DNA from: Candidatus Methanoperedens sp.
GTDB lineage: Archaea > Halobacteriota > Methanosarcinia > Methanosarcinales > Methanoperedenaceae
Length of the DNA stretch: 32,000 bases
Direction: 5' to 3'
NCBI GenBank assembly: GCA_027460535.1
Contig: JAPZAR010000010.1
Location: 60,001-92,000 of the forward strand
The notes under the pieces were generated by a model. That model worked only from the letters and a program-made list of their open reading frames with translations. It did not search any database and was not told where the DNA came from. This document shows positions 223 to 23,888 of this stretch, one piece after another. Position numbers and translations under genes: made by a program. The stretch's first letter is position 1, and each line of letters begins with the position of its first letter.

Positions 223-684
223 ATGGATAAGAAAAAAATCTTAAAATACACAGTGGTAGTGCTGTTGATACTTTCGGTATCAGGGTATTACCTATACCAG
301 CATGCTTTAGATATCGGCCTGGAAAAACCAGCACTTGTACTGACGGTCTCTACGAATCTGACAGATAAGGGTACCCCAATAATCAACAATGTCACATTCG
401 AGGAATCCAGTGTGATGTTCTTCTATAAGAGAGCGGATACGCCTGCGAATTTCCCGGAAATAGACGCTAACGCCCGAATCAATAAGCTTGCCGCAATTCC
501 TGCGAGCTTTTGGGCTTCAATTCATCGCCCAAGCGAAGGCGTGTATACCCTGAGGATGTTCTTCAGGGACGGTATGGAACCTAAAAAAGGCGATGTCCTG
601 ATCATACCGATCCGCCTTGTAAGCCATACGGGAGCCATCCAGTACAAAACAACAGCTTTCTATTGCTGGAGTTGTGAGGAATGA
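223..684 (+). CDS. small N-terminally anchored protein of unknown family, C-terminal CxxC
   Basis: 153-aa ORF with a Lys-rich N-terminus followed by a hydrophobic helix (YTVVVLLILSVSGYYLY). It ends FYCWSCEE. The stop lies 2 nt before the next ATG, consistent with operon packing. Confidence 0.6.
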   Translation: MDKKKILKYTVVVLLILSVSGYYLYQHALDIGLEKPALVLTVSTNLTDKGTPIINNVTFEESSVMFFYKRADTPANFPEIDANARINKLAAIPASFWASIHRPSEGVYTLRMFFRDGMEPKKGDVLIIPIRLVSHTGAIQYKTTAFYCWSCEE

Positions 685-685
685 G

Positions 686-1645
686 ATGAAACTGATGTGG
701 GTATTGCTTGCGCTGGGCGGGATTTCATTATGGGTTATTCCCAATACCCTTTCCCTCTTCAGCGGAGGGCATGCCTACTATAACATTGATGCCAATGGTT
801 CACAGGTCCCATGCCAGAAATGCCATGGGGATATCCAGATAGAGATCCATACGGGCTCCATACATTCCAATTTTACATGTGCCGACTGCCACCGCGTCCA
901 GAATGGCGTACAGTACGCAAGCGGCGACGATGCATACGAGCGGCTCATATATATCAACGTGACCGGGCCGACGAACATAGGGAACAGGGTTCTTGCAACA
1001 ACGCTGGGGAATTTCCAGAGAGGTAATTTCCCAAAATCAATAATCGGTGAAACTATGATCGACCAGTGGGCAGTCTCCGGAAATGACGAGGTGCAGTTCC
1101 GGGATGCAAATAATCAATATGCTGGCGCCATGACACCCGGCGAAACAGGCATATTATACAACTACGCATATGCAGAAGAGATAAGCACGTATTTTAATGG
1201 AACACCAAAAGACACAGACCTTTTCACCCAACAAAATATGCTTGACCCAAGATTGATTACTGTGAACCCGAACCGTTTGGGTTCGGACGATCTCATAGGC
1301 GCGGGGTCCAGAGTGGTTACACCCGGGACATTGGCCCATGCAGCATCGACTATCCTGTGCGAAGAGTGTCACTCAGATTATCTGGCCAAAATGCCTGACA
1401 ATATACATGAAGCTTTCATCAAGTATGGTATGGAACACGATACAAACGAAAACTGCATCGCATGCCACACTTCAACAGCCGTATCAATTAACTGGACCCG
1501 TCCGAGCACACTGGGCATTGAAACAGGCTCTGATGGCTACAATATCACAATCAAGAAGACCTACTCGGCTTTCAATGAAAAACTTGAAACTTTTGGAAAT
1601 AAGGAAGGTAATGTTTTCGCAGTATCGAATGTGACAATAATATAA
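686..1645 (+). CDS. tetraheme c-type cytochrome, exported
   Basis: Four CxxCH motifs: CQKCH (812-826), CADCH, CEECH, CIACH. There is an N-terminal hydrophobic segment and about 7 N-x-S/T sequons. Two N-terminal and two C-terminal hemes are separated by a ~155-aa heme-free insert. The ORF track starts at GTG 674. ATG 686 (MKLMWVLL) is preferred because it lies 2 nt after the upstream stop with GAGGA just upstream. Confidence 0.85.
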   Translation: MKLMWVLLALGGISLWVIPNTLSLFSGGHAYYNIDANGSQVPCQKCHGDIQIEIHTGSIHSNFTCADCHRVQNGVQYASGDDAYERLIYINVTGPTNIGNRVLATTLGNFQRGNFPKSIIGETMIDQWAVSGNDEVQFRDANNQYAGAMTPGETGILYNYAYAEEISTYFNGTPKDTDLFTQQNMLDPRLITVNPNRLGSDDLIGAGSRVVTPGTLAHAASTILCEECHSDYLAKMPDNIHEAFIKYGMEHDTNENCIACHTSTAVSINWTRPSTLGIETGSDGYNITIKKTYSAFNEKLETFGNKEGNVFAVSNVTII

Positions 1646-1706
1646 ATATTCAAGTGCTAATTATTTAAAAAATGTATAATAATAGAAATAAATTGTGTTC
1701 GATTGT

Positions 1707-3173
1707 ATGAAAAGAATTATCGTATTAATATTCACGCTAATGCTATTGTCGCAGACCGCATCAGCTCTGGGCGAGTTCAGGTTTGATTTTGCAACTTCGG
1801 TCGCTGGGGTTAGTAACTACACAAAGCACTGGTCAAATACCTATCCTCCCGATCCAAAAGCGGACATTATAATTTATTCAGCGGCCTATAATATGTCCTA
1901 CAAACGCATATCAGCTGTCACGTTCCTCTATACCGTCTATGATCCGTATGACAATGTCGTGAGCGTGCAAACGATAGACTCTTTCAAGCGCGGTTATGAC
2001 CCGAATGTGGTTTATTATAATCTGCATCCCGGATCCGACTGGATAGAGGGGATATATAAACTCAACATCGTTGTGTACGACAGGATCGACCGTGAGGCAT
2101 ACGATGAGAAGATCACCAAAGATCCTTTTGGTATTGGCATGAATCCTGATGCGTATAAAACATTCTATGAGACGGGTGCTAATGCGCAAGATATGGGCAT
2201 TCTTCTGGGTCGAGGGAATCCGGTAGCTCAGGCGGTACTTAATTTCAAAATAGACAAATCGGTCACTATCTATCCACCGGACAGGTTCCTCCTTCATGAT
2301 GTGAGGTTCGTCGATGACAACAATGAGCGTATACTCGGTGAGAAACTCAACATAGAGGTAAAGCTCGATAATAATTACAAAGATGAGGGTACTGTCAAAC
2401 TGGCAATGCTGGTGGATAATAATCTTGTTTCCACGCAGGAAGTCACGGCTAAAGGACAAACAACCACAACGGTCAACTTCGATGCCAAAGCAGGTAAGGT
2501 CGGCACCTTCAAATTACACTTCGGGGCAGATACTCCTGATGTAAAATATCAGAACGCGGAGTTAACCTTCACAATCAAGAACGAGACAGATACAACCAGG
2601 TTGGATACCCCCAGGATCACCATTACAGGAATGAACGTTAACAAAGAGTTCGTACCTATTGGTGAAAACGTAATTGTATCTGTAGGCGCGATAAATAACG
2701 GTCAAGCCGGAAGCAAAACGATTACCGTTTATTCGAATAAAGTACCCGTTGGATCGGCGCAATTGCAGCTCCAGAGTCTTGAAGAAAAAACAGTAGAGAT
2801 CCCCATAGATTTGAAAAACATGGGGATAAATAAGATCACCGTATCGGATGCGCCTCAACTTTTCAGGAACGTATTCGTGCAGGAGGCAGACGCATCGGCG
2901 ATTAAGGGGAATCAAGTCCTAAACCGGGTTACTGAAAGCCCCTTGAAAGTTTCGATGGTAGTTGTGTTCCTTGTTTTTGCAGGGACCCTTTACTATATGA
3001 GGAATAAGTTAAAGGAAGAAGAATCCCCGCCGAAAATCCCCGTCGAAGCGGTTAAGGAAAATCATCCAAGCAAAGTGGTTTTAGATGACACGATAATGAA
3101 AAGAGCGTCCTATTTGAGAGAGAAGCTGTCTGACAGGATGAGGGCAGTAATGAAAAATAAACCGCGCCCCTGA
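1707..3173 (+). CDS. exported type-I membrane protein with CARDB/Ig-like beta-sandwich repeats
   Basis: Signal peptide MKRIIVLIFTLMLLSQTASALGEF. Two segments resemble CARDB domains (GEKLNIEVKLDNNYKDEGTVKLAMLVDNN...; GENVIVSVGAINNGQAGSKTITVYSNKVPVG...). A C-terminal TM helix (VSMVVVFLVFAGTLYYM) is followed by a charged ~60-aa tail. The ORF track starts at GTG 1695, but ATG 1707 fits the signal peptide better. Confidence 0.7.
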   Translation: MKRIIVLIFTLMLLSQTASALGEFRFDFATSVAGVSNYTKHWSNTYPPDPKADIIIYSAAYNMSYKRISAVTFLYTVYDPYDNVVSVQTIDSFKRGYDPNVVYYNLHPGSDWIEGIYKLNIVVYDRIDREAYDEKITKDPFGIGMNPDAYKTFYETGANAQDMGILLGRGNPVAQAVLNFKIDKSVTIYPPDRFLLHDVRFVDDNNERILGEKLNIEVKLDNNYKDEGTVKLAMLVDNNLVSTQEVTAKGQTTTTVNFDAKAGKVGTFKLHFGADTPDVKYQNAELTFTIKNETDTTRLDTPRITITGMNVNKEFVPIGENVIVSVGAINNGQAGSKTITVYSNKVPVGSAQLQLQSLEEKTVEIPIDLKNMGINKITVSDAPQLFRNVFVQEADASAIKGNQVLNRVTESPLKVSMVVVFLVFAGTLYYMRNKLKEEESPPKIPVEAVKENHPSKVVLDDTIMKRASYLREKLSDRMRAVMKNKPRP

Positions 3174-3179
3174 CCCGAT

Positions 3180-3866
3180 ATGAAAGAAATAGACTATACA
3201 ATACCCCTGATCGTTTCATTGATTAGCTTAGTATTGCTTTCGGTCTTTTACCTCTACAAAACAGAAAACGGTACATTGATGCGCATATTTTCATCCTGGG
3301 TCATGAAGACAAGATACAGTCCTGCCAAGTACCAGAAAGATACACGCGGGCAGGATTCTATTCTGCTGGTTGTATTGACCATATTGATCTTTGCATTTGC
3401 TCTGAAAATTATCTCTTTTGCTGTGGTCATATCGGATTCCATGCGACCAGAGTTCCAAAGAGGCGATATCGTCCTTACTCAAACCATATTCAAAGATCCC
3501 CAGAAAGGAGATATTGTCACCTTCAAGGCAAGCGGCGTCCAGAATCCCATCACCCACAGGGTTGTTAATGTTCAGCAGGATATCGTGACAACGAAAGGTG
3601 ATAATAATCCTCTTGTCGATGATTATGGGACTACCAGGCAAGACGTTCTTGCAAAAGCCGTCGTAGTGGGCAGTCATCCTCTCGTGATAAAGGGTGTAGG
3701 TTCTTTATTCATTCTGGACTTTTCCAAAGAAGGTAAACTCAATAAATTCGGCGACCAGTTCACCTTCCTCCAGCAGGTGTTTGTAACTATAAGAACATGG
3801 GGATACGTCATTACAATAATAGCCTTCAGTGCGTTGATAATGTCTATGATGGGGAGTAAGAGATGA
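3180..3866 (+). CDS. signal peptidase I, Sec11/SipW type (S26B, Ser-His)
   Basis: All S26B boxes are present: VVISDSMRPEFQRGDIVL (catalytic Ser box), ITHRVV (His box), TKGDNNPLVDD (GDNN box). TM helices flank the catalytic domain. The stop overlaps the next start (ATGA at 3863-3866). Confidence 0.85.
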   Translation: MKEIDYTIPLIVSLISLVLLSVFYLYKTENGTLMRIFSSWVMKTRYSPAKYQKDTRGQDSILLVVLTILIFAFALKIISFAVVISDSMRPEFQRGDIVLTQTIFKDPQKGDIVTFKASGVQNPITHRVVNVQQDIVTTKGDNNPLVDDYGTTRQDVLAKAVVVGSHPLVIKGVGSLFILDFSKEGKLNKFGDQFTFLQQVFVTIRTWGYVITIIAFSALIMSMMGSKR

Positions 3867-4747
3867 ACCGGAAATTATACTTGCTGGTGATACTGGCAAT
3901 TATTATAACCACATTGAGCCAGACATTTTCCTTTATTAGCGGAGACCATCAGTTCTACGAGACAGTACAGGATAAATGCGTGAAATGCCACGGCGATATC
4001 AAAGTCCAGTTATCCACATCAGCCAACCATTCGCAATTCTCCTGCACGAGCTGCCATACCCAGTCGGCAACTAACCATACAAATACGGTACCTAAGTGCG
4101 AATATTGCCATACGATCACGCAATTGAATGATACGCTTGAAGCACACCCTGATTTCTTGTCTCTGGGTTCACAAGGCTGCATAGCCTGCCACACAACCTA
4201 CAACGTTCTTGTGAACTATTCCCGGCCGGAGTATATTGACTATGACATTACAAGCGATAATGGAAATTGGATTGTCTCTAATTTTACGACAATTGGAACG
4301 CTGAACCTTTCTTATAACACATTGAGACAGGGCGGGACCCATAACGAGAAAAGTGTATCATGCAAAGACTGCCATAAAGACATCTTCGATTCGATTTCCG
4401 TGAAAGGTCATGCGGTAGTCCTTGATAAGAATGGGATGCAAGTGCCCAGTCATAGTACGAGCAACTCCCCGAACCTGGAAGAATGGTGCCTGACCTGCCA
4501 TAGCCCGAATGATACCAGGTTCCCAACACAGCAGCATGCTGCGCGCAAAACCACGTGTGACGAATGCCATGAAGCTTATAATTTAGCGCCCCATCCCGGC
4601 AATTTCTATGCAAATATCAAGACAGTTCCGCATTTATATCGGAGCCTCGTTTGCATATCATGTAAATCTGTGGGATGGCAGGTACCCAACGCAACTTTAC
4701 ATTTCAAGGTGCGTGAAGAGCCTTATTTCGACGTGGTGGTGACATAG
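3863..4747 (+). CDS. heptaheme c-type cytochrome, exported (plus one CxxCK)
   Basis: Seven CxxCH motifs: CVKCH, CTSCH, CEYCH, CIACH, CKDCH, CLTCH, CDECH. One additional CISCK lies at 4652-4666. There is an N-terminal hydrophobic segment and at least 8 N-x-S/T sequons. The N-terminal diheme module is homologous to that of the tetraheme protein. Confidence 0.85.
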   Translation: MNRKLYLLVILAIIITTLSQTFSFISGDHQFYETVQDKCVKCHGDIKVQLSTSANHSQFSCTSCHTQSATNHTNTVPKCEYCHTITQLNDTLEAHPDFLSLGSQGCIACHTTYNVLVNYSRPEYIDYDITSDNGNWIVSNFTTIGTLNLSYNTLRQGGTHNEKSVSCKDCHKDIFDSISVKGHAVVLDKNGMQVPSHSTSNSPNLEEWCLTCHSPNDTRFPTQQHAARKTTCDECHEAYNLAPHPGNFYANIKTVPHLYRSLVCISCKSVGWQVPNATLHFKVREEPYFDVVVT

Positions 4748-4748
4748 A

Positions 4749-5630
4749 ATGAAAGATAAAATTGCGGTTTTTAGCGCCATTCTGTTGGGCCTGGTCGTAG
4801 GATTATTCGCCACCATATCGCTCATAATCGATGCGTTCATTGTTGATAACTTATTAGGAACGATCATAGATCTCATAGTAATAGGTTTTTCTTACATGAC
4901 AGCCTGGATTGGTATCCGGTATGTCCTGATGGAGAAAATTGCGCGGGATAAAATGGACCGGGAATGGGATTATAAAATACAGCCACTGGCCAATCTGATG
5001 ACTGACACGATCGGACGTTTTAATGCGATGGAACTTGAAATCATGAAGACCAATCGCAAAGTGGAAACAGCTCTTGATTATGTGACAAAAATGCAGGATA
5101 TGGATGCCTCATCTGTTTATATTCTTCCGGGTGCATCCTTTAAATTCATAACCAAAGTCCTTGTGCTGATAATCTTTACGTTCTCGGCATTGATTTATGT
5201 GGCCCAATATCCTCTGGGATTTGTTCATTACTTCATTCTGGTCATCTACTTATTATGGTGGGCACTATTCACTTCAGAATATCATCTCTTTGATAACAAA
5301 ACAGCGTGGATATGGGCTCTGGCACCCATAATGATTATTCCGGTCGGGGGAATTATCCTTGATGCCACACTTGGAATAAACAACATGGTTGGCATACTCT
5401 TCTTCTTCATGTTCATCTACGCTTATTCCTATTACACGTGGACGACGTCAGTGACCATTGGATTCAAACTCTTCGACATCCAAAAGATCAAGGATTATTT
5501 GATCAAGAAGATCGAATCTGAGATACAGCAGGAGAAGGTGGAGCGGAAGATAAACAGGAAATGGATCGATGTAGGGATTCTTGCATCTATTGTGATCGCG
5601 GGAGCGGTTGCAGTATGGATCTTTCTGTAA
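4749..5630 (+). CDS. polytopic membrane protein (about 7 TM), unknown family
   Basis: 293-aa ORF starting 2 nt after the cytochrome stop. Hydrophobic helices are visible by eye (2 N-terminal, 4 central, 1 C-terminal). Two charged, probably helical soluble segments separate them. Confidence 0.65.
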   Translation: MKDKIAVFSAILLGLVVGLFATISLIIDAFIVDNLLGTIIDLIVIGFSYMTAWIGIRYVLMEKIARDKMDREWDYKIQPLANLMTDTIGRFNAMELEIMKTNRKVETALDYVTKMQDMDASSVYILPGASFKFITKVLVLIIFTFSALIYVAQYPLGFVHYFILVIYLLWWALFTSEYHLFDNKTAWIWALAPIMIIPVGGIILDATLGINNMVGILFFFMFIYAYSYYTWTTSVTIGFKLFDIQKIKDYLIKKIESEIQQEKVERKINRKWIDVGILASIVIAGAVAVWIFL

Positions 5631-6011
5631 TGGCTGGCATAGACAAATATCACGAAACTATTTCATAAACGGGTTGCTACGCCAGACCCCCGGATGCGTC
5701 GCTTTCAGCAGGCATATTGCTCTTTTCATTGTTACATATCCGGGTTCAACAGTAGCTCAAGGAGAATATCACTAGGCAGATTTGGATGCATTTTGTCACA
5801 TAGATGAATTTAATATGGCGATGATGGATGGTGGTTCAAGACCTTTTTAATAAGCTTGTCATCAGCACTTGTTCTTAAATCACTGGAAGCCATACGGGAA
5901 TCAGGAAATCAGGAGTGCATATTTAAGTCAAGTGATAGCCCTTAAAGATTAAGAATCCTGGCAGAGGATTCGTTAGCCGAAATTGCTATTATAACCAGAC
6001 TCAAATCAAAT

Positions 6012-6047
6012 CCCGGTTCTTTCACCGTTCCCGGTTCTTTCACTGTT
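6012..6047. repeat. 18-bp tandem duplication in a long intergenic region
   Basis: CCCGGTTCTTTCACCGTT (6012-6029) is followed directly by CCCGGTTCTTTCACTGTT (6030-6047), with 1 mismatch. Confidence 0.8.
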
Positions 6048-6332
6048 TCCATTTCAATTTCTGCGCCTATGCTTGCTGATGGTTCTGGTGATATATATTT
6101 GCGACTGTACACGAAATCCACATATGACAGATAGTTTCATTGCTGAGTGAATAGAAGAACAAAAGGTAGATTAATATTCAGGTTAATATAATGGCTGGCT
6201 GCTCTGAGGTATATGGTGACAGGGCATGCGATAAGATTGAGGATGGAAAAATGTTAAATGCAAATCTATCGGTGCATGAGGAGCGATAGTATGAATCGAC
6301 CAAACGCTCTTCCGATCAGACAGGAACCAAAA

Positions 6333-9300
6333 ATGAAAAGCTTTCAACTGATCTGGAAAGTGTTTCTGTTCATCGGCGCTTTGCTTGTAATAATGCTTCC
6401 TTCAGGTATTGCTGGAAGCATCGCTGCAGCCCAAAATCAGGATGTGGTGTATGACGATAAGATTGCTGAGCAATGGGCTAATGGCACATGGGACTGCGCC
6501 AGCGGCGGTTCGCCTGAATATAATCTCTCGCAATCTGAGGTTGTCCACAGCGGCAACTACGCCATCGAGGTCAACCATTCCAGCCCTTACTGTCAAGGTG
6601 GATGGGGCGCCCTTGATTTAGATAGAAGAAATGAACAATGGACTGCTCTCTACTGGATGTATCCCAATCAGTATAAGAACCTCTCCTTCTACTTCAATCC
6701 CGGACACAGCCTCGATAATCTGGGTGCACTGAGCATCACTGCAGACAACGGCTATACTGTGAGGTTAATAGACTACATCAATGGAACAGCAAGTCCAGAT
6801 ACCTGGTATCACATCAATATCCCCCTTGAAGATTTCAATCGGGGAAACAAGTTTTTCAGGATTGTTTTCTGGTTTACCTCATCTGGCAATCTCCACTACT
6901 ATCTCGATGATATCTCCCTGGAATGGATAGATGACCCGAATCCGCCTCTGATTTCCAATGTATCGGTCACAAATATTACCTGGAAAAGCGCTGAGGTCAG
7001 ATGGCAGACTGATGAATATACCAATTCTACCCTTTACTCTGTCGCAGGGGATAACAATTTTTCTTATGAAGAGACGGACTATACCAGAGAGCATAAGATC
7101 ATACTAACAAATCTTACCCCAAGTACCACCTATCGTGTCCACATCATTTCCAGGGATCACCAGGCCAATGCTTCTGTCTCTGCGAACATTGCAGAGAATT
7201 ATAGTGAATTTACCACCGCCCCTCCGGATGTAATACCTCCAGTGATAAGCAATGTGTGGGTTTCAGATATTAAATCAGATCGTGCATCAATTTACTGGAC
7301 GACCGACGAACCTGCAGATTCAAGAGTTTATTATGGTGAAAATAATTATAGCGCCAATAAGACAGATGACAGCCTTACCACCAGCCATCGCGTTGTTATA
7401 ACTGGACTCAAACTGCTGAATTCGTATCAATATAAGGTAGCTTCCCAGGATGAATCAAGGAACCTCGCTGCTTATGAAGAAACTCCACCGATGAATTTCA
7501 CAACCACCGCTTATCCAGCAGCCACGCTGCAGGTAAATGCTGCCAATAAGACCCGTCCATTCAGCAGGAATATCCTGGGGGCTGGTCTTGGCAACTGGGC
7601 TTTTTGGTGGGGAAGACCATATCCAAATGATTCGCTAAAATTGCGGGAGCTGACCAAACTTATCAAACCGGGAGTTTTGAGATATGCAGGAGGTCTTGCG
7701 TCCAACAGTGTCACCTGGGACAGGAATAACACGCAACATTACGCGGCGGGATTTTACGATAAGAATGGCGTATTAACCTGGGGCCAACGCCAATACTATA
7801 ATCCTGGGGATCCTTTAACGGTCGGATATGACCGCTGCAATGGTACAACGCCCATCAGGGTAGAAAATGCCTACGATAAGGGTTACCAGAAAGATGAGAT
7901 CGATGCCTTGGCAGCCTTTGCAAAATACGTGGGGGCAGATGTAATGATTGAAGTAGATATTAGCACCTGTGACCCTGAACTCTGGGCTGATATGCTTAAC
8001 TACACAAATGTTGAGAATAATTATAATTTCAAATACTGGGAACTTGGGAATGAACTGGATCTTGAGAAAGCAGCTGGAAAACCCGTGCCTTTTGGTTCGG
8101 AATATGTTTCCAGGTTTAAGAAATACTCCAAGGCATTAAAGGCCGTGGATAATAGCATTCTCATCACTGGTCCGACCACGGCATCGTATTATAATGAATC
8201 TTACTTCCGGGCATACATAGATTTCATCGATCCCCTTACATTGGATCCGGAAATCCAGCAGAACAAATCCCTGGATGTTCTAAGTTATCACTATTACCCG
8301 CTATGGAACCATGACGGAGGTGTGAAAAGTTATGAGGATATGTTTGCCTTTGACTCTCGTAAGGAAATGGATTCCGACGCAAGGGACAAGAGGGAACTTT
8401 TGGATAATCGCAATCTTACAAATACCAGGATCGCTATCTCGGAGTTCAATTCCATGGCAGCCGATCTGGCAACCTCTTATACATTTAACCATGCCAATGC
8501 TCTCTATATGGCTGATACACTGGCAAGGCAGGCAAATAGCGGCGCAGATATGATCATGCACTGGGAACTTTATGATCAGCCCTACGACTCTACAGGAAAA
8601 TTAGATACAAGTTACGGGCTGCTCAATTACAATGGATCCTCTATCAGCATAGGTTACCCGCCGTCAAGAGAAATAACTATAGAAGACAAGTTCTTCCCCA
8701 TGCCTGTTTATTACACGTATTTCATGTATGCCCAGTTTTTTGGAGACATGCTGGTGCGATCCTCCAGTTCCATGGAGGATAACCTCTCGATCTGGGCAAG
8801 TACTGATTCCGCCCAGCCAAATACCTTAAAACTGATGGTCGTCAATCTGGCTGACGAATCTGTTAATGCCACCTTAAACTTAAGTGGTTTTCACCAGACA
8901 GGCGGCAGATACTTCGAGATGACTAACGATGACTTTGTGACTGCTCCAGATAAAGCAAAGGTTTTTGGTGGAACGAAAATCAACGGTCTGGAAATTAACA
9001 GCAGTTCTGCACAGAGCATTATCGACTCGGCACAAAGGATCATTGATTCTGGTAGACCTGTGAGCGACATGGGAAATTCTTTCAACCATGTTTTCCCGGC
9101 CTATTCTGCCACTGTCATCGTGCTTAACACTACTGCTTCACAAATCCAGGGTGTCACAAATCTCAGCAATGTAAGCTATGCCAGCAATTATATCAACTGG
9201 ACATGGACTGACCCTGCAGACCCGGATTTCGATAAAGTAATGGTATATCTTAATGGAAATTTCCAGAGGAATGTAACCAAAGGTACGCAGTATTACAATG

Positions 9301-9689
9301 CCACTGTGGCACCAGGAACATACACCATCGGCACAAGAACAGTGGATACTAATGGAAATATTAATGCTACCATGGTGACGCATACTGCAACCACGGTACT
9401 CCCATCGATAAGGTTCATTAACGGCACTGTGATGGACAGTGTCAATAAAACGGGAATCGCTGGTGTGAGTGTATCAACCAATACCAGCCTCTCAACAACG
9501 ACTAATTCGACAGGGTTCTATTCGTTTGCAGTTGCTGAAGGCACATACAGCCTTACGGCAACTTTTGATATATCATATTATACGAATAGCACAATTGTCT
9601 CAACGATTGGAAGCGCTGTTGTGGTGAAGGATATTGAACTGGTAAAGAAGCCCACCGGAACTATCACTGGTAGTGTTACAAGTACTTAG
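6333..9689 (+). CDS. large secreted multidomain protein: N-terminal CBM-like region, 2 FN3-like, clan GH-A-like TIM-barrel glycosidase domain, FN3-like, CarboxypepD_reg-like
   Basis: Sec signal MKSFQLIWKVFLFIGALLVIMLPSGIAGSIAAAQ begins at ATG 6333; the ORF track start at 6258 adds 25 unlikely residues. FN3-like repeats: ISNVSVTNITWKSAEVRWQTDE and ISNVWVSDIKSDRASIYWTTDE. Glycosidase signatures: LRYAGG, KYWELGNELD (acid/base NE) and IAISEFNS (candidate nucleophile). The C-terminal segment GTVMDSVNKTGIAGVSVSTN...GFYSFAVAEGTYSL is CarboxypepD_reg-like. N-x-S/T sequons are very dense. Confidence 0.75.
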   Translation: MKSFQLIWKVFLFIGALLVIMLPSGIAGSIAAAQNQDVVYDDKIAEQWANGTWDCASGGSPEYNLSQSEVVHSGNYAIEVNHSSPYCQGGWGALDLDRRNEQWTALYWMYPNQYKNLSFYFNPGHSLDNLGALSITADNGYTVRLIDYINGTASPDTWYHINIPLEDFNRGNKFFRIVFWFTSSGNLHYYLDDISLEWIDDPNPPLISNVSVTNITWKSAEVRWQTDEYTNSTLYSVAGDNNFSYEETDYTREHKIILTNLTPSTTYRVHIISRDHQANASVSANIAENYSEFTTAPPDVIPPVISNVWVSDIKSDRASIYWTTDEPADSRVYYGENNYSANKTDDSLTTSHRVVITGLKLLNSYQYKVASQDESRNLAAYEETPPMNFTTTAYPAATLQVNAANKTRPFSRNILGAGLGNWAFWWGRPYPNDSLKLRELTKLIKPGVLRYAGGLASNSVTWDRNNTQHYAAGFYDKNGVLTWGQRQYYNPGDPLTVGYDRCNGTTPIRVENAYDKGYQKDEIDALAAFAKYVGADVMIEVDISTCDPELWADMLNYTNVENNYNFKYWELGNELDLEKAAGKPVPFGSEYVSRFKKYSKALKAVDNSILITGPTTASYYNESYFRAYIDFIDPLTLDPEIQQNKSLDVLSYHYYPLWNHDGGVKSYEDMFAFDSRKEMDSDARDKRELLDNRNLTNTRIAISEFNSMAADLATSYTFNHANALYMADTLARQANSGADMIMHWELYDQPYDSTGKLDTSYGLLNYNGSSISIGYPPSREITIEDKFFPMPVYYTYFMYAQFFGDMLVRSSSSMEDNLSIWASTDSAQPNTLKLMVVNLADESVNATLNLSGFHQTGGRYFEMTNDDFVTAPDKAKVFGGTKINGLEINSSSAQSIIDSAQRIIDSGRPVSDMGNSFNHVFPAYSATVIVLNTTASQIQGVTNLSNVSYASNYINWTWTDPADPDFDKVMVYLNGNFQRNVTKGTQYYNATVAPGTYTIGTRTVDTNGNINATMVTHTATTVLPSIRFINGTVMDSVNKTGIAGVSVSTNTSLSTTTNSTGFYSFAVAEGTYSLTATFDISYYTNSTIVSTIGSAVVVKDIELVKKPTGTITGSVTST

Positions 9690-22306: not shown

Positions 22307-23188
22307 ATGAAAAAGATTTGCACAAAATTACATTTGGGCGATTGCAAAGAAGTTTTAAAAACGCTTGATAGTAATTCAATTGACCTGGTTTTCACTTCAC
22401 CGCCTTATGCTGACCGCAGAATACATACATATGGTGGTGTTAAGCCAGAGAATTATGTTGAATGGTTTTTGCCTATCAGCGAACAACTTTTAAGAGTTCT
22501 TAAACCTGATGGAACTTTCATTTTAAATATTAAAGAAAAAGCCGAAAATGGCGAGAGACATACTTACGTCTTGGAATTGATTTTAACATTGCGAAAACAG
22601 GGCTGGCTATGGACGGAAGAACTTATCTGGCACAAAAGAAATTGTTATCCCGGTAAATGGCCTAATCGTTTTCGTGATTCCTGGGAAAGACTTTTACAAT
22701 TTAATAAAACTAAAAAATTCAAAATGTATCAAGAAGAAGTTATGGTCCCTATTGGCGATTGGGCAAAAGACAGATTAAAACGTTTAAGTGAAGTAGATAA
22801 AATTAGAGATAATGCAAAAAATGGTAGTGGCTTTGGTAAAAATGTTTCGAATTGGCTAAATAGAGATAAAGCTTATCCAACAAATGTCTTACATTTAGCT
22901 ACTGAATGCAATAATAAAAATCATAGTGCAGTTTTTCCAGAAGCTTTACCAGAATGGTTTATTAAATTATTCACTAAAGAAGATGATACCGTTTTAGACC
23001 CTTTCATGGGTTCAGGAACAACTATTGTTGTAGCACAGAGGATGAGACGGAATTCCATAGGCATAGATATTTTGCCTGAATATTTCGAGATAGTTAAAAA
23101 TAAAATAAGTCCAGTTCAATATTACTTAGTTGAAGAAAAAGGAATTTATGAAACAAATAAATATGAACGATGTTCAGAAATATGTTGA
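22307..23188 (+). CDS. beta-class DNA methyltransferase (N4-cytosine or N6-adenine; SPPY suggests N4C)
   Basis: Motif IV DLVFTSPPYA lies near the N-terminus and motif I VLDPFMGSGTT near the C-terminus. This IV-before-I order is the beta-class permutation. Confidence 0.85.
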   Translation: MKKICTKLHLGDCKEVLKTLDSNSIDLVFTSPPYADRRIHTYGGVKPENYVEWFLPISEQLLRVLKPDGTFILNIKEKAENGERHTYVLELILTLRKQGWLWTEELIWHKRNCYPGKWPNRFRDSWERLLQFNKTKKFKMYQEEVMVPIGDWAKDRLKRLSEVDKIRDNAKNGSGFGKNVSNWLNRDKAYPTNVLHLATECNNKNHSAVFPEALPEWFIKLFTKEDDTVLDPFMGSGTTIVVAQRMRRNSIGIDILPEYFEIVKNKISPVQYYLVEEKGIYETNKYERCSEIC

Positions 23189-23888
23189 AGAGAACATCGG
23201 AACTTTCCATTCAAAAAGGTTACAAAATCTTGAAAAACTCAAATTAAAGCGTGTCTTACAAAGAAAAAATCCGTATCTTTTTAAAGCTAAAAATATTTTA
23301 ACTGCTCAAGATTTAGTACAAAATCTTCTTGATGCTTACTTATCTTCTCAGGAAGAGACAATTTTTGGAGATTTTCTTGAAGGTCTTGCAATTTTTATTT
23401 GCAGTAGGATTTATGATGGGAATAAGTCGGCAGCTGAGGGGATCGATTTAGAGTTCAGTAAAGATGGGATAAAATATCTCGTAACGATAAAATCAGGACC
23501 AAATTGGGGAAATAGTGGTCAAATCAAAGATATGAAGAAATCTTTCATTAAAGCGATAAAAATTCTAAATACCAATAATCCTAAAATTCATGTTGTTGCT
23601 GTGAATGGTTGTTGTTACGGACGATCGAAACAAATAGAAAAAGATGGCTATCGAAAACTATGTGGTCAAAGATTTTGGGAATTTATTTCAGGAAATGAAA
23701 ACCTGTATACAGAAATAATAGAACCTCTTGGACATAAAGCAAAAGAAAAGAATGAAGATTTTTTAAAAGCCTATTCAAAATTAATTAATAAATTTACGTT
23801 TGAATTTGGAAGAGATTTTTGTTTAGATGGAGAAATAAATTGGGACGCTTTGGTAAAATTCAATTCATCAATTCAAAAGCCAAAATAA
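23148..23888 (+). CDS. candidate type II restriction endonuclease partner
   Basis: It overlaps the 3' end of the methyltransferase (start ATG 23148 or 23163) and has the same low GC. The family was not recognised from sequence. The call rests on context. Confidence 0.5.
   Translation: MKQINMNDVQKYVEENIGTFHSKRLQNLEKLKLKRVLQRKNPYLFKAKNILTAQDLVQNLLDAYLSSQEETIFGDFLEGLAIFICSRIYDGNKSAAEGIDLEFSKDGIKYLVTIKSGPNWGNSGQIKDMKKSFIKAIKILNTNNPKIHVVAVNGCCYGRSKQIEKDGYRKLCGQRFWEFISGNENLYTEIIEPLGHKAKEKNEDFLKAYSKLINKFTFEFGRDFCLDGEINWDALVKFNSSIQKPK

Follow-up and report, generated by a model that had tools for sequence, protein, structure and literature searches.

How the cytochrome filaments, or nanowires, of archaea are put together is a question that takes a compact form in a stretch of 32,000 nucleotides from Candidatus Methanoperedens sp. 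(assembly GCA_027460535.1, contig JAPZAR010000010.1, positions 60,001 to 92,000 of the forward strand). Within this stretch, henceforth the window, which is numbered from its first letter, positions 223–5630 are a six-gene operon for AvECN-type extracellular multiheme cytochromes. A tetraheme cytochrome (686–1645) and a heptaheme cytochrome (3863–4747) are encoded there next to a dedicated signal peptidase (3180–3866), and this compactness makes the assembly of such filaments testable. A preliminary description of the sequence had seen in the two cytochromes, and in a third protein of the operon, a common ending of the signal peptide, which it likened to the motif of proteins processed by SipW, and it had proposed that cleavage triggers polymerisation. 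What, then, is this motif, and what would read it? The best overall explanation, to which we give a probability of about 0.6, is that it constitutes the N-terminus of the AvECN family, that it is cleaved, that the histidine brought close to the new N-terminus serves heme ligation between subunits, and that the neighbouring genes encode an assembly module. This explanation is built on homology, conservation of the motif, the count of invariant histidines, the type of the peptidase and the linkage of the genes.

The three peptides are indeed found where they had been placed: window 743–781 translates to NTLSLFSGGHAYY in the tetraheme protein, 3920–3958 to QTFSFISGDHQFY in the heptaheme protein and 1746–1778 to LSQTASALGEF in the third one, and the two cytochromes do carry four and seven CxxCH motifs. 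In the cytochromes, the motif is almost certainly the AvECN-family N-terminus, that is, the end of a signal peptide followed by the first heme-binding histidine. The family block can be written P-[SNQ]-T-x-[SA]/L-F-x-G-Q-H-x-[WFY]-Y, where the stroke stands for the predicted cut, with the first CxxCH about 13 residues further on. It is present in all 233 homologues retrieved, 120 of 120 for the tetraheme protein and 113 of 113 further homologues of its Ferroglobus relative. Counted from the histidine in 265 distinct N-termini, P is found at H-10 (79%), T at H-8 (82%), a small residue at H-6 (98%), G at H-2 (90%), Q at H-1 (74%), an aromatic W, F or Y at H+2 and Y at H+3 (83%). The blocks were selected with hydrophobic residues (L, F) required at H-5 and H-4, so that the frequencies at these two positions do not count as independent evidence.

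The sharing of the motif by the two cytochromes of the operon has a simple origin. Residues ~1–135 of the heptaheme protein are paralogous to the four-heme core of the tetraheme protein (BLASTP 3e-12 and 2e-7), three more hemes following, and the common motif is therefore a matter of descent, not of two independent occurrences. In the orthologues of the heptaheme protein T-x-S-[FIL]-[IV]-x-[GS]-[DE]-H is kept in 13 cases out of 13, as are T21, S23 and H29 individually. The expectation that the block T-x-S-x-F-S-G-[GD]-H would be conserved in orthologues was thus borne out for the cytochromes, while the pattern itself had been drawn too narrowly: the residue that usually precedes the histidine is Q, not G or E, and the regular expression of the preliminary description matches only 25 of 308 cytochrome open reading frames (ORFs).

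For the third protein the resemblance dissolves. Among 1890 non-cytochrome ORFs it is the only one to match that expression, and its signal peptide has a generic end, A-S-A/L-G-E-F, with A at -3 and at -1. Its orthologues (13 from the loci and 76 from a protein search) end their signals in [AV]-S-A, continued by x-G-[ED]-F-x-F-D, and the T of Q-T-A-S-A is missing in nearly all of these 89 sequences. The match of the window protein is a chance fit made after the fact, and a sorting motif common to three proteins was rejected, as the orthologues of the third one lack it. As a separate observation, other Methanoperedens genomes encode directly after the peptidase a second seven-heme paralogue without the motif histidine, as in QAVLFINKDIKIE (L073 1820–2561; L075 8684–9568 and 9623–13820; L077; L079; L083; L005–L008, L014, L015 and L017). 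In those genomes the heptaheme domain that bears the histidine forms the N-terminus of giant ORFs, from 858 to more than 2285 amino acids long, whereas in the window it stands alone, with 294 residues.

What makes the tetraheme protein a candidate for a filament subunit is its kinship with a filament of known structure. The protein, which is 100% identical to P0001, from a metagenome-assembled genome (MAG) of Candidatus Methanoperedens, is matched by phmmer with an E-value of 2.6e-16 to PDB entry 8E5G, the cytochrome filament AvECN of Archaeoglobus veneficus. The alignment consists of three stretches, which cover the N-terminal block and hemes 1, 3 and 4, and it runs through the motif (VLPSTTSLFLGQHMWYNISGTGNNLPCEKCH against VIPNTLSLFSGGHAYYNIDANGSQVPCQKCH), the motif part itself being VLPSTTSLFLGQHMWYN against VIPNTLSLFSGGHAYYN and the AvECN block reading L-F-L-G-Q-H-M-W-Y-N. 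Its sequence places the tetraheme protein in the AvECN/MmcX family, homologues of which had already been noted in Methanoperedenaceae, and by analogy it is a probable filament subunit. A Foldseek search with its AlphaFold2 (AF2) model returned 8e5g as the sole match at E<=0.001 (4.6e-4), yet with a TM score of 0.17–0.23 and a root-mean-square deviation of 19.9, a weakness that we ascribe to the lack of hemes in the model, whose mean pLDDT (the confidence score of the prediction) is 74. A part predicted with confidence (pLDDT ~90) is a beta-rich insertion of ~130 residues between hemes 2 and 3 (residues ~80–210; window 923–1315), which might decorate the surface of a filament. The two homologue searches did not return AvECN itself, and the gene neighbourhoods of Ferroglobus and Geoglobus were examined in its stead.

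The histidine of the motif, H29, can be assigned a role by counting. In alignments of 14 and of 60 family members, with three to six CxxCH each, exactly eight histidines are invariant: in the tetraheme protein these are the four within CxxCH together with H29, H60, H218 and H241. The hemes of these filaments are described in the literature as typically bis-histidine, so that four hemes demand eight ligands, leaving none to spare, and as far as the alignments go the motif histidine must be a distal heme ligand. The comparison of distal ligands with hemes, suggested in the preliminary description for structure models and made here on alignments, gives four invariant histidines outside CxxCH for four hemes, and its conserved histidine near the mature N-terminus is confirmed as invariant. 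The heptaheme protein has nine invariant non-CxxCH histidines, H29 included, for its seven hemes. Whether H29 would reach across to another subunit is a finer question. Three of the four distal histidines of AvECN are donated by another subunit, and judging by this precedent inter-subunit ligation by H29 has an even chance or slightly better; the supplement of PMC11936953 was found to contain no residue-level list of the AvECN ligands.

All this gains interest if the block is cut. The tetraheme protein has the layout of a type I signal peptide (M1–S23, 686–754): MK, then a hydrophobic h-region of 16 residues, LMWVLLALGGISLWVI, then the c-region P-N-T-L-S. The cut is predicted after S23, between bases 754 and 755, with T at -3, S at -1 and P at -5, and the mature protein would begin with the block LFSGGHAYYNIDA (755–793), in which H29 is encoded at 770–772. 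In the heptaheme protein (predicted signal peptide M1–S23, 3863–3931; H29 at 3947–3949) the same rule gives T-F-S/F-I, with T at -3, S at -1 and S at -5. Across the 265 family N-termini these three positions are the columns conserved at 82% (-3), 98% (-1, small) and 79% (-5), and T-x-[SA]/L-F is the sole site that satisfies the (-3,-1) rule in every member. The predicted mature starts are LFSGGH and FISGDH, with the histidine at +6, within the five to six residues from the new N-terminus that had been anticipated for a cut after the small residue. We regard cleavage at T-x-[SA]/L-F, predicted in this way, as likely. Two other placements were rejected: with a cut after L-F-[SA], position -1 would be occupied by L in AvECN and by E, Q, P, Y or N elsewhere in the family, and a class III (pilin-type) signal is at odds with an n-h-c layout that has a long h-region ahead of the cut. 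In 8e5g, 220 residues are modelled out of 262 deposited, a figure compatible with loss of a signal peptide of 26 residues plus 16 disordered ones, without being proof of it.

The signal peptide is conserved to a degree that calls for comment. Signal peptides normally drift fast; here, among 32 relatives of less than 50% identity, and uncorrected for relatedness, the c-region of the signal carries 3.55 bits per column, exactly as much as the region of the first heme motif, and the n- and h-regions 2.94, against 2.70 for the rest of the protein. Something may therefore read this sequence, and the conservation suggests as reader either a peptidase cognate to the signal or a partner in the membrane to which the helix is bound. 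It is at this point that one may wonder whether the helix is cut at all. The unusually conserved h-region could reflect contacts between helices in the membrane, and the cytochromes would then be short electron conduits, tethered by an uncleaved signal anchor, with the conserved histidine near the membrane surface; that no filament has yet been seen in Methanoperedenaceae would be in keeping with this. Yet the structure of AvECN, whose N-terminus is the same, is that of an extracellular filament, with 220 of 262 residues modelled; an h-region of ~16 residues, with P at -5 and a small residue at both -3 and -1, marks a signal that is cleaved, not an anchor; and the operon encodes a peptidase. 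All of this makes the tethered conduit improbable.

That peptidase (3180–3866, 228 residues) is of the Sec11/SipW type. It scores 81.7 bits, for a cut-off of 51.85, with TIGR02228, the model of archaeal and endoplasmic reticulum-type signal peptidase I (family S26B), has extra membrane helices at both its N- and C-terminus, and aligns with human SEC11A/C over SxSMxP, THRV and GDNN. Its catalytic residues are S87 (3438–3440), H126 (3555–3557) and D141 (3600–3602), a Ser/His/Asp set in place of Ser/Lys, and they are invariant in eight divergent homologues (~30% identity). Its stop codon overlaps the start of the heptaheme gene by 4 nt.

A peptidase of this kind brings to mind the SipW system, and the formal likeness is real: T-x-[SA]/x-F-[SA] in the window compares with T-W-A/A-F-N-D in TasA, with T at -3, a small residue at -1 and F at +2 in both. 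Were the signal truly SipW-cognate, the freed N-terminal strand would polymerise the subunits by donor-strand exchange as in TasA, and the Sec11/SipW type of the peptidase, together with a TapA-like protein of Ig (immunoglobulin) domains in the operon, would fit the picture. Likeness is not membership, however. TIGR04088, the hidden Markov model of the SipW-cognate class, matches at E<=10 neither the whole proteins nor the isolated N-termini of the three proteins and one paralogue, whereas the TasA N-terminus, as positive control in the same run, scored 42.5 bits (E 4.8e-11) for a cut-off of 19, and this rules out membership of the class. The peptidase itself reaches 39 bits with the SipW equivalog model, where 190 are required. 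As for donor-strand exchange, which the preliminary description had entertained, homologues of AvECN are packed with hemes and have no jelly-roll domain to accept a donor strand. An assembly of the TasA kind is thus very improbable here.

Two further proteins accompany the peptidase. The one with the generic signal end is a surface protein of 488 residues (1707–3173, signal peptide 1707–1766; 492 residues from a GTG at 1695), which the preliminary description had named after the CARDB domain. The window protein has no Pfam match at E<=1 and no NCBIfam match; about ten of its orthologues carry a precomputed PF07705 match, for which one source gives the name CARDB, and the model of the window protein is compatible with such a domain at the level of the fold only. 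Its AF2 model (pLDDT 79) is all-beta, with about four tandem Ig-like beta-sandwich domains and a helix at 412–437, and Foldseek relates it to macroglobulin-type and other Ig-like domains; at the C-terminus there are a membrane helix and a tail of basic character. A macroglobulin-like beta-sandwich is also found in TapA, which serves the TasA fibre as accessory protein. Given this TapA-like fold and its constant position beside the peptidase, with homologues adjoining that enzyme in Ferroglobus, in Geoglobus and in locus L129, it is a fair guess that this Ig-like anchored protein acts as anchor or nucleator.

The other partner, a multi-pass membrane protein of 293 residues (4749–5630), is constantly found with the peptidase: its homologues adjoin that gene in ANME-1, in Ferroglobus (67 bits), in L129 (64 bits) and in many metagenome loci. 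Residues ~168–190 form a Trp-rich stretch, LWWALFTSEYHLFDNKTAWIW, conserved in the ANME-1 and L129 homologues. The stretch recalls the Trp-rich motifs of heme-handling proteins; searches of Pfam and NCBIfam gave no family match for the protein, and on the basis of these searches a role as a Ccm-type heme handler was set aside. By analogy with TapA, which accompanies SipW and TasA, the two partners are probably anchor or assembly factors.

The linkage between peptidase and cytochromes is not a peculiarity of this operon. A search centred on the peptidase gave 80 metagenome loci, 64 of which have at least 1 kb of flank; a multiheme cytochrome lies within 3 kb in 51 of the 64 and directly adjacent in 46, and the L-F..H block is present in 45. 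AvECN-type genes have those for the peptidase and for the homologue of the 293-residue protein as neighbours in ANME-1, in Archaeoglobus JdFR-37 and in MAGs that bear the labels Halobacteriota and Halobacteria, and the same linkage is met in Ferroglobus placidus and Geoglobus acetivorans. The peptidase subfamily is thus tied in genomes to such cytochromes. The two cultured iron reducers, besides, share a four-gene cassette composed of an Ig-like protein (601 or 611 residues, with a faint CARDB match), a small ORF, the peptidase and, on the other strand, the multi-pass protein. A small cytochrome precedes the cassette; immediately after it come two genes of AvECN type, then multiheme proteins of very large size that match the macroglobulin MG2 domain, the whole array lying at L153 3670–10759 in F. 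placidus and at L154 4745–10771 in G. acetivorans. Chadwick et al. (2022; PMC9012536), in the passages that bear on these genes, describe, for ANME, Ferroglobus and Geoglobus, cytochrome genes accompanied by a signal peptidase and an unannotated '8x TMH' gene, and the 293-residue protein may be the product of that gene.

From these elements a scenario can be drawn, in which we infer the position of the cut, the peptidase that makes it, the inter-subunit ligation by H29 and the very formation of filaments in Methanoperedens. Both cytochromes would be exported by Sec and their hemes attached outside the membrane. The precursors would then be cut after the small residue (T-L-S/L-F and T-F-S/F-I), most likely by the Sec11/SipW-type peptidase of the operon, to free a soluble subunit with a short N-terminal strand that carries the distal-ligand histidine at +6. 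The histidine of the strand would supply the distal ligand of a heme that, on the example of AvECN, probably belongs to the adjacent subunit, and so extend a conductive filament; if the strand does reach into the next subunit, polymerisation can occur only after cleavage. The Ig-like and multi-pass proteins would assist or anchor the process, and the heptaheme protein, with its polymerisation-type N-terminus and three extra hemes, may be a base or an adaptor. That there may be a cognate signal class, and that cleavage may trigger polymerisation, are plausible hypotheses. The most explicit form of the idea is that AvECN-type subunits carry their own cognate signal class, that it is read by a module of three proteins (the peptidase, the Trp-rich multi-pass protein and the Ig-like protein) acting as a nanowire assembly machine, that the histidine of the freed six-residue strand ligates the heme of the next subunit, so that the peptidase gates polymerisation, and that the heptaheme protein is the base or adaptor. 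In this complete form it can be put forward as a tentative proposal, with distinctly less than an even chance.

A more prosaic account of the same facts is available. The signals would be ordinary Sec signals cut by a general peptidase, the block would reflect a structural need for the distal histidine and its flanks, the peptidase of the operon would serve the Ig-like partner or many multiheme cytochromes, and cleavage would not be a specific trigger of assembly. Chadwick et al. (PMC9012536), in those same passages, take the enzyme in this general sense, with the proposal that it cleaves the signal sequences of cytochromes. Several observations that agree with this account weigh against the explanation that we favour. 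Signal peptidase I canonically cuts at ends such as T-x-S, or T-x-[SA] preceded by P at -5. Many AvECN-family genes have no peptidase gene within 10 kb (L009–L011, L013, L016 and most Archaeoglobaceae loci), and a trans-acting or housekeeping peptidase must therefore serve them. The triad of peptidase, multi-pass and Ig-like proteins also exists in loci where no cytochrome is nearby (L129 and similar), so that the module is not specific for cytochromes and must be older or broader than they are. In addition, other cytochromes of the same clusters have generic A-x-A signal ends and no L-F..H block. On the other side stands the conservation of the signal peptide, whose h- and c-regions are better conserved than the mature protein among relatives below 50% identity, something not expected of a generic signal; so do the frequent adjacency of peptidase and multiheme cytochrome, the frequency of the block in the same loci, and the overlap of the peptidase stop with the heptaheme start. 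Taken together, this leaves the general-peptidase account unlikely, though far from negligible. Further points tell against the favoured explanation: the position of the cut has the (-3,-1) rule as its sole basis; the figure of three inter-subunit ligands out of four in AvECN is a total, not an assignment of individual histidines; the AF2 model of the tetraheme protein is uninformative at the motif (pLDDT below 50 for residues 18–33); its insertion has no counterpart in AvECN, in the homologues of Ferroglobus and Geoglobus or in Methanoperedens variants of 194 residues; the motif histidine is lost in some heptaheme paralogues directly after the peptidase (L073, L075, L077, L079, L083); and the literature reports filaments as not yet visualised in Methanoperedenaceae, a 2026 review holding it an open question whether Methanoperedens makes nanowires. 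Even so, the AvECN-type N-terminus, cut and served by its neighbours, remains in our view the best explanation, while cleavage by the operon's own peptidase is a matter of equal odds.

The cytochrome-free triad deserves a description for its own sake. In L129 it occupies positions 5614–9386 (the Ig-like protein having 626 residues), and it recurs in L133, L136, L138 and L141, beside a MinD/ParA-like ATPase gene and several type IV pilin-like genes.

The operon as a whole is tightly built. Its six genes lie in the same direction, on the forward strand, with intergenic gaps of 1–49 nt (from the list of ORFs) and two overlapping pairs (684/674–686 and 3866/3863), and the full order of six is kept in Methanoperedens, as seen in a search from the cytochrome side that gave 72 genome loci in all. 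The first gene (223–684) encodes a Methanoperedens-conserved protein of 153 residues with one N-terminal membrane helix, for which Pfam and NCBIfam profile searches gave no family match; in 13 loci its orthologues (58–88% identity) immediately precede the tetraheme gene. The tetraheme protein has 319 residues from its ATG at 686, an alternative GTG start being present at 674. A scan for sigma-70 promoters and terminators gave nothing above shuffled sequences, the sigma-70 model being in any case inapplicable to an archaeon; an AT-rich TTTAAATA, some 50 nt ahead of position 223, is a TATA-box candidate by eye only.

The cytochrome genes are not confined to the window. In related loci (L001 1854–2717, L075 2766–5009, L076 2926–5609) a five-heme AvECN-type paralogue of about 430 residues lies 2–3 kb upstream of the gene for the 153-residue protein, and the same upstream region holds a small six-heme cytochrome that ends its signal in a generic A-x-A; on the contig of the window tetraheme itself, P0078 is an AvECN paralogue of the five-heme type, from which, together with the layout of the related loci, it follows that the cytochrome cluster continues to the left of position 1. 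The operon is closely followed (6258–9689) by the gene of a secreted non-cytochrome protein of 1143 residues, with many N-x-S/T sequons and weak matches to fn3, purple-acid-phosphatase-N, GH39/GH44-like and CarboxypepD_reg-like domains. The remainder of the window is made of archaeal housekeeping genes (eIF2-alpha, GINS, primase, RPA, RadA, ribosomal proteins). Between a HAD hydrolase gene and these housekeeping genes, at 22307–23888, lies what looks like a restriction-modification island of acquired origin: it encodes an N6/N4 DNA methylase together with a restriction endonuclease of EcoO109I type, in a patch of 33.8% G+C for ~45% in the window.

It is worth placing these findings with respect to what had been established. 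The cytochrome family, with its Methanoperedens homologues, is already published, as is, in the relevant passages of PMC9012536, the link with the peptidase. The signal end as a family signature, the ligand histidine six residues from the predicted cut and the three-protein module were not found stated in the passages of the literature at hand. The idea about assembly is reasonable and testable, all the more as ANME-1 and the cultured iron reducers Ferroglobus and Geoglobus possess the module too. If the peptidase does gate assembly, it would offer a handle to switch conductive filaments on or off, as well as a genomic marker of nanowire-forming archaea; if it does not, L-F-x-G-Q-H-x-W-Y ahead of the first CxxCH is still a useful signature for the annotation of AvECN-type cytochromes.

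Among known systems the closest is AvECN (F2KMU8, PDB 8E5G; MmcX family), which has in common with the window tetraheme its four CxxCH, the same four extra invariant histidines and the same N-terminal block, P-S-T-x-S-L-F-x-G-Q-H-x-W-Y-N. Unlike AvECN, the window protein has the insertion of ~130 residues, the operon adds a heptaheme paralogue, and the filament is a putative one. The Geobacter filaments OmcS and OmcE, in which one histidine per subunit ligates the heme of the neighbouring subunit, have no relationship of sequence or fold with the window family, and AvECN uses three such inter-subunit histidines, not one. Assembly of OmcZ reportedly needs prior cleavage by a subtilisin-like protease, a result attributed to Gu and colleagues in 2023; the window enzyme, by contrast, is an N-terminal signal peptidase. 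In the gene content that surrounds it, the operon resembles the pair described in the passages cited from Chadwick et al. 2022 (PMC9012536), a dedicated peptidase and a multi-pass protein that accompany the cytochrome genes of the same lineages, and it goes beyond what those passages contain by the block at the cleavage site, the link to AvECN-type cytochromes and the third, Ig-like anchored partner. N-terminal processing precedes polymerisation both in the tapA-sipW-tasA system of Bacillus subtilis and in the archaeal bundling pili AbpA/AbpB, the operon of which, unlike that of the window, has no dedicated peptidase. The tapA-sipW-tasA operon resembles ours in that a Sec11-type peptidase is encoded together with the subunit of a fibre and an accessory protein of beta-sandwich fold; in contrast with it, the window signal falls outside TIGR04088, the subunit is a heme protein, and the bond to be expected is ligation of iron by histidine, not complementation of a strand. 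By analogy, then, we may see in this operon a layout like that of tapA-sipW-tasA, in the service of a putative bond between subunits like that of OmcS, OmcE and AvECN.

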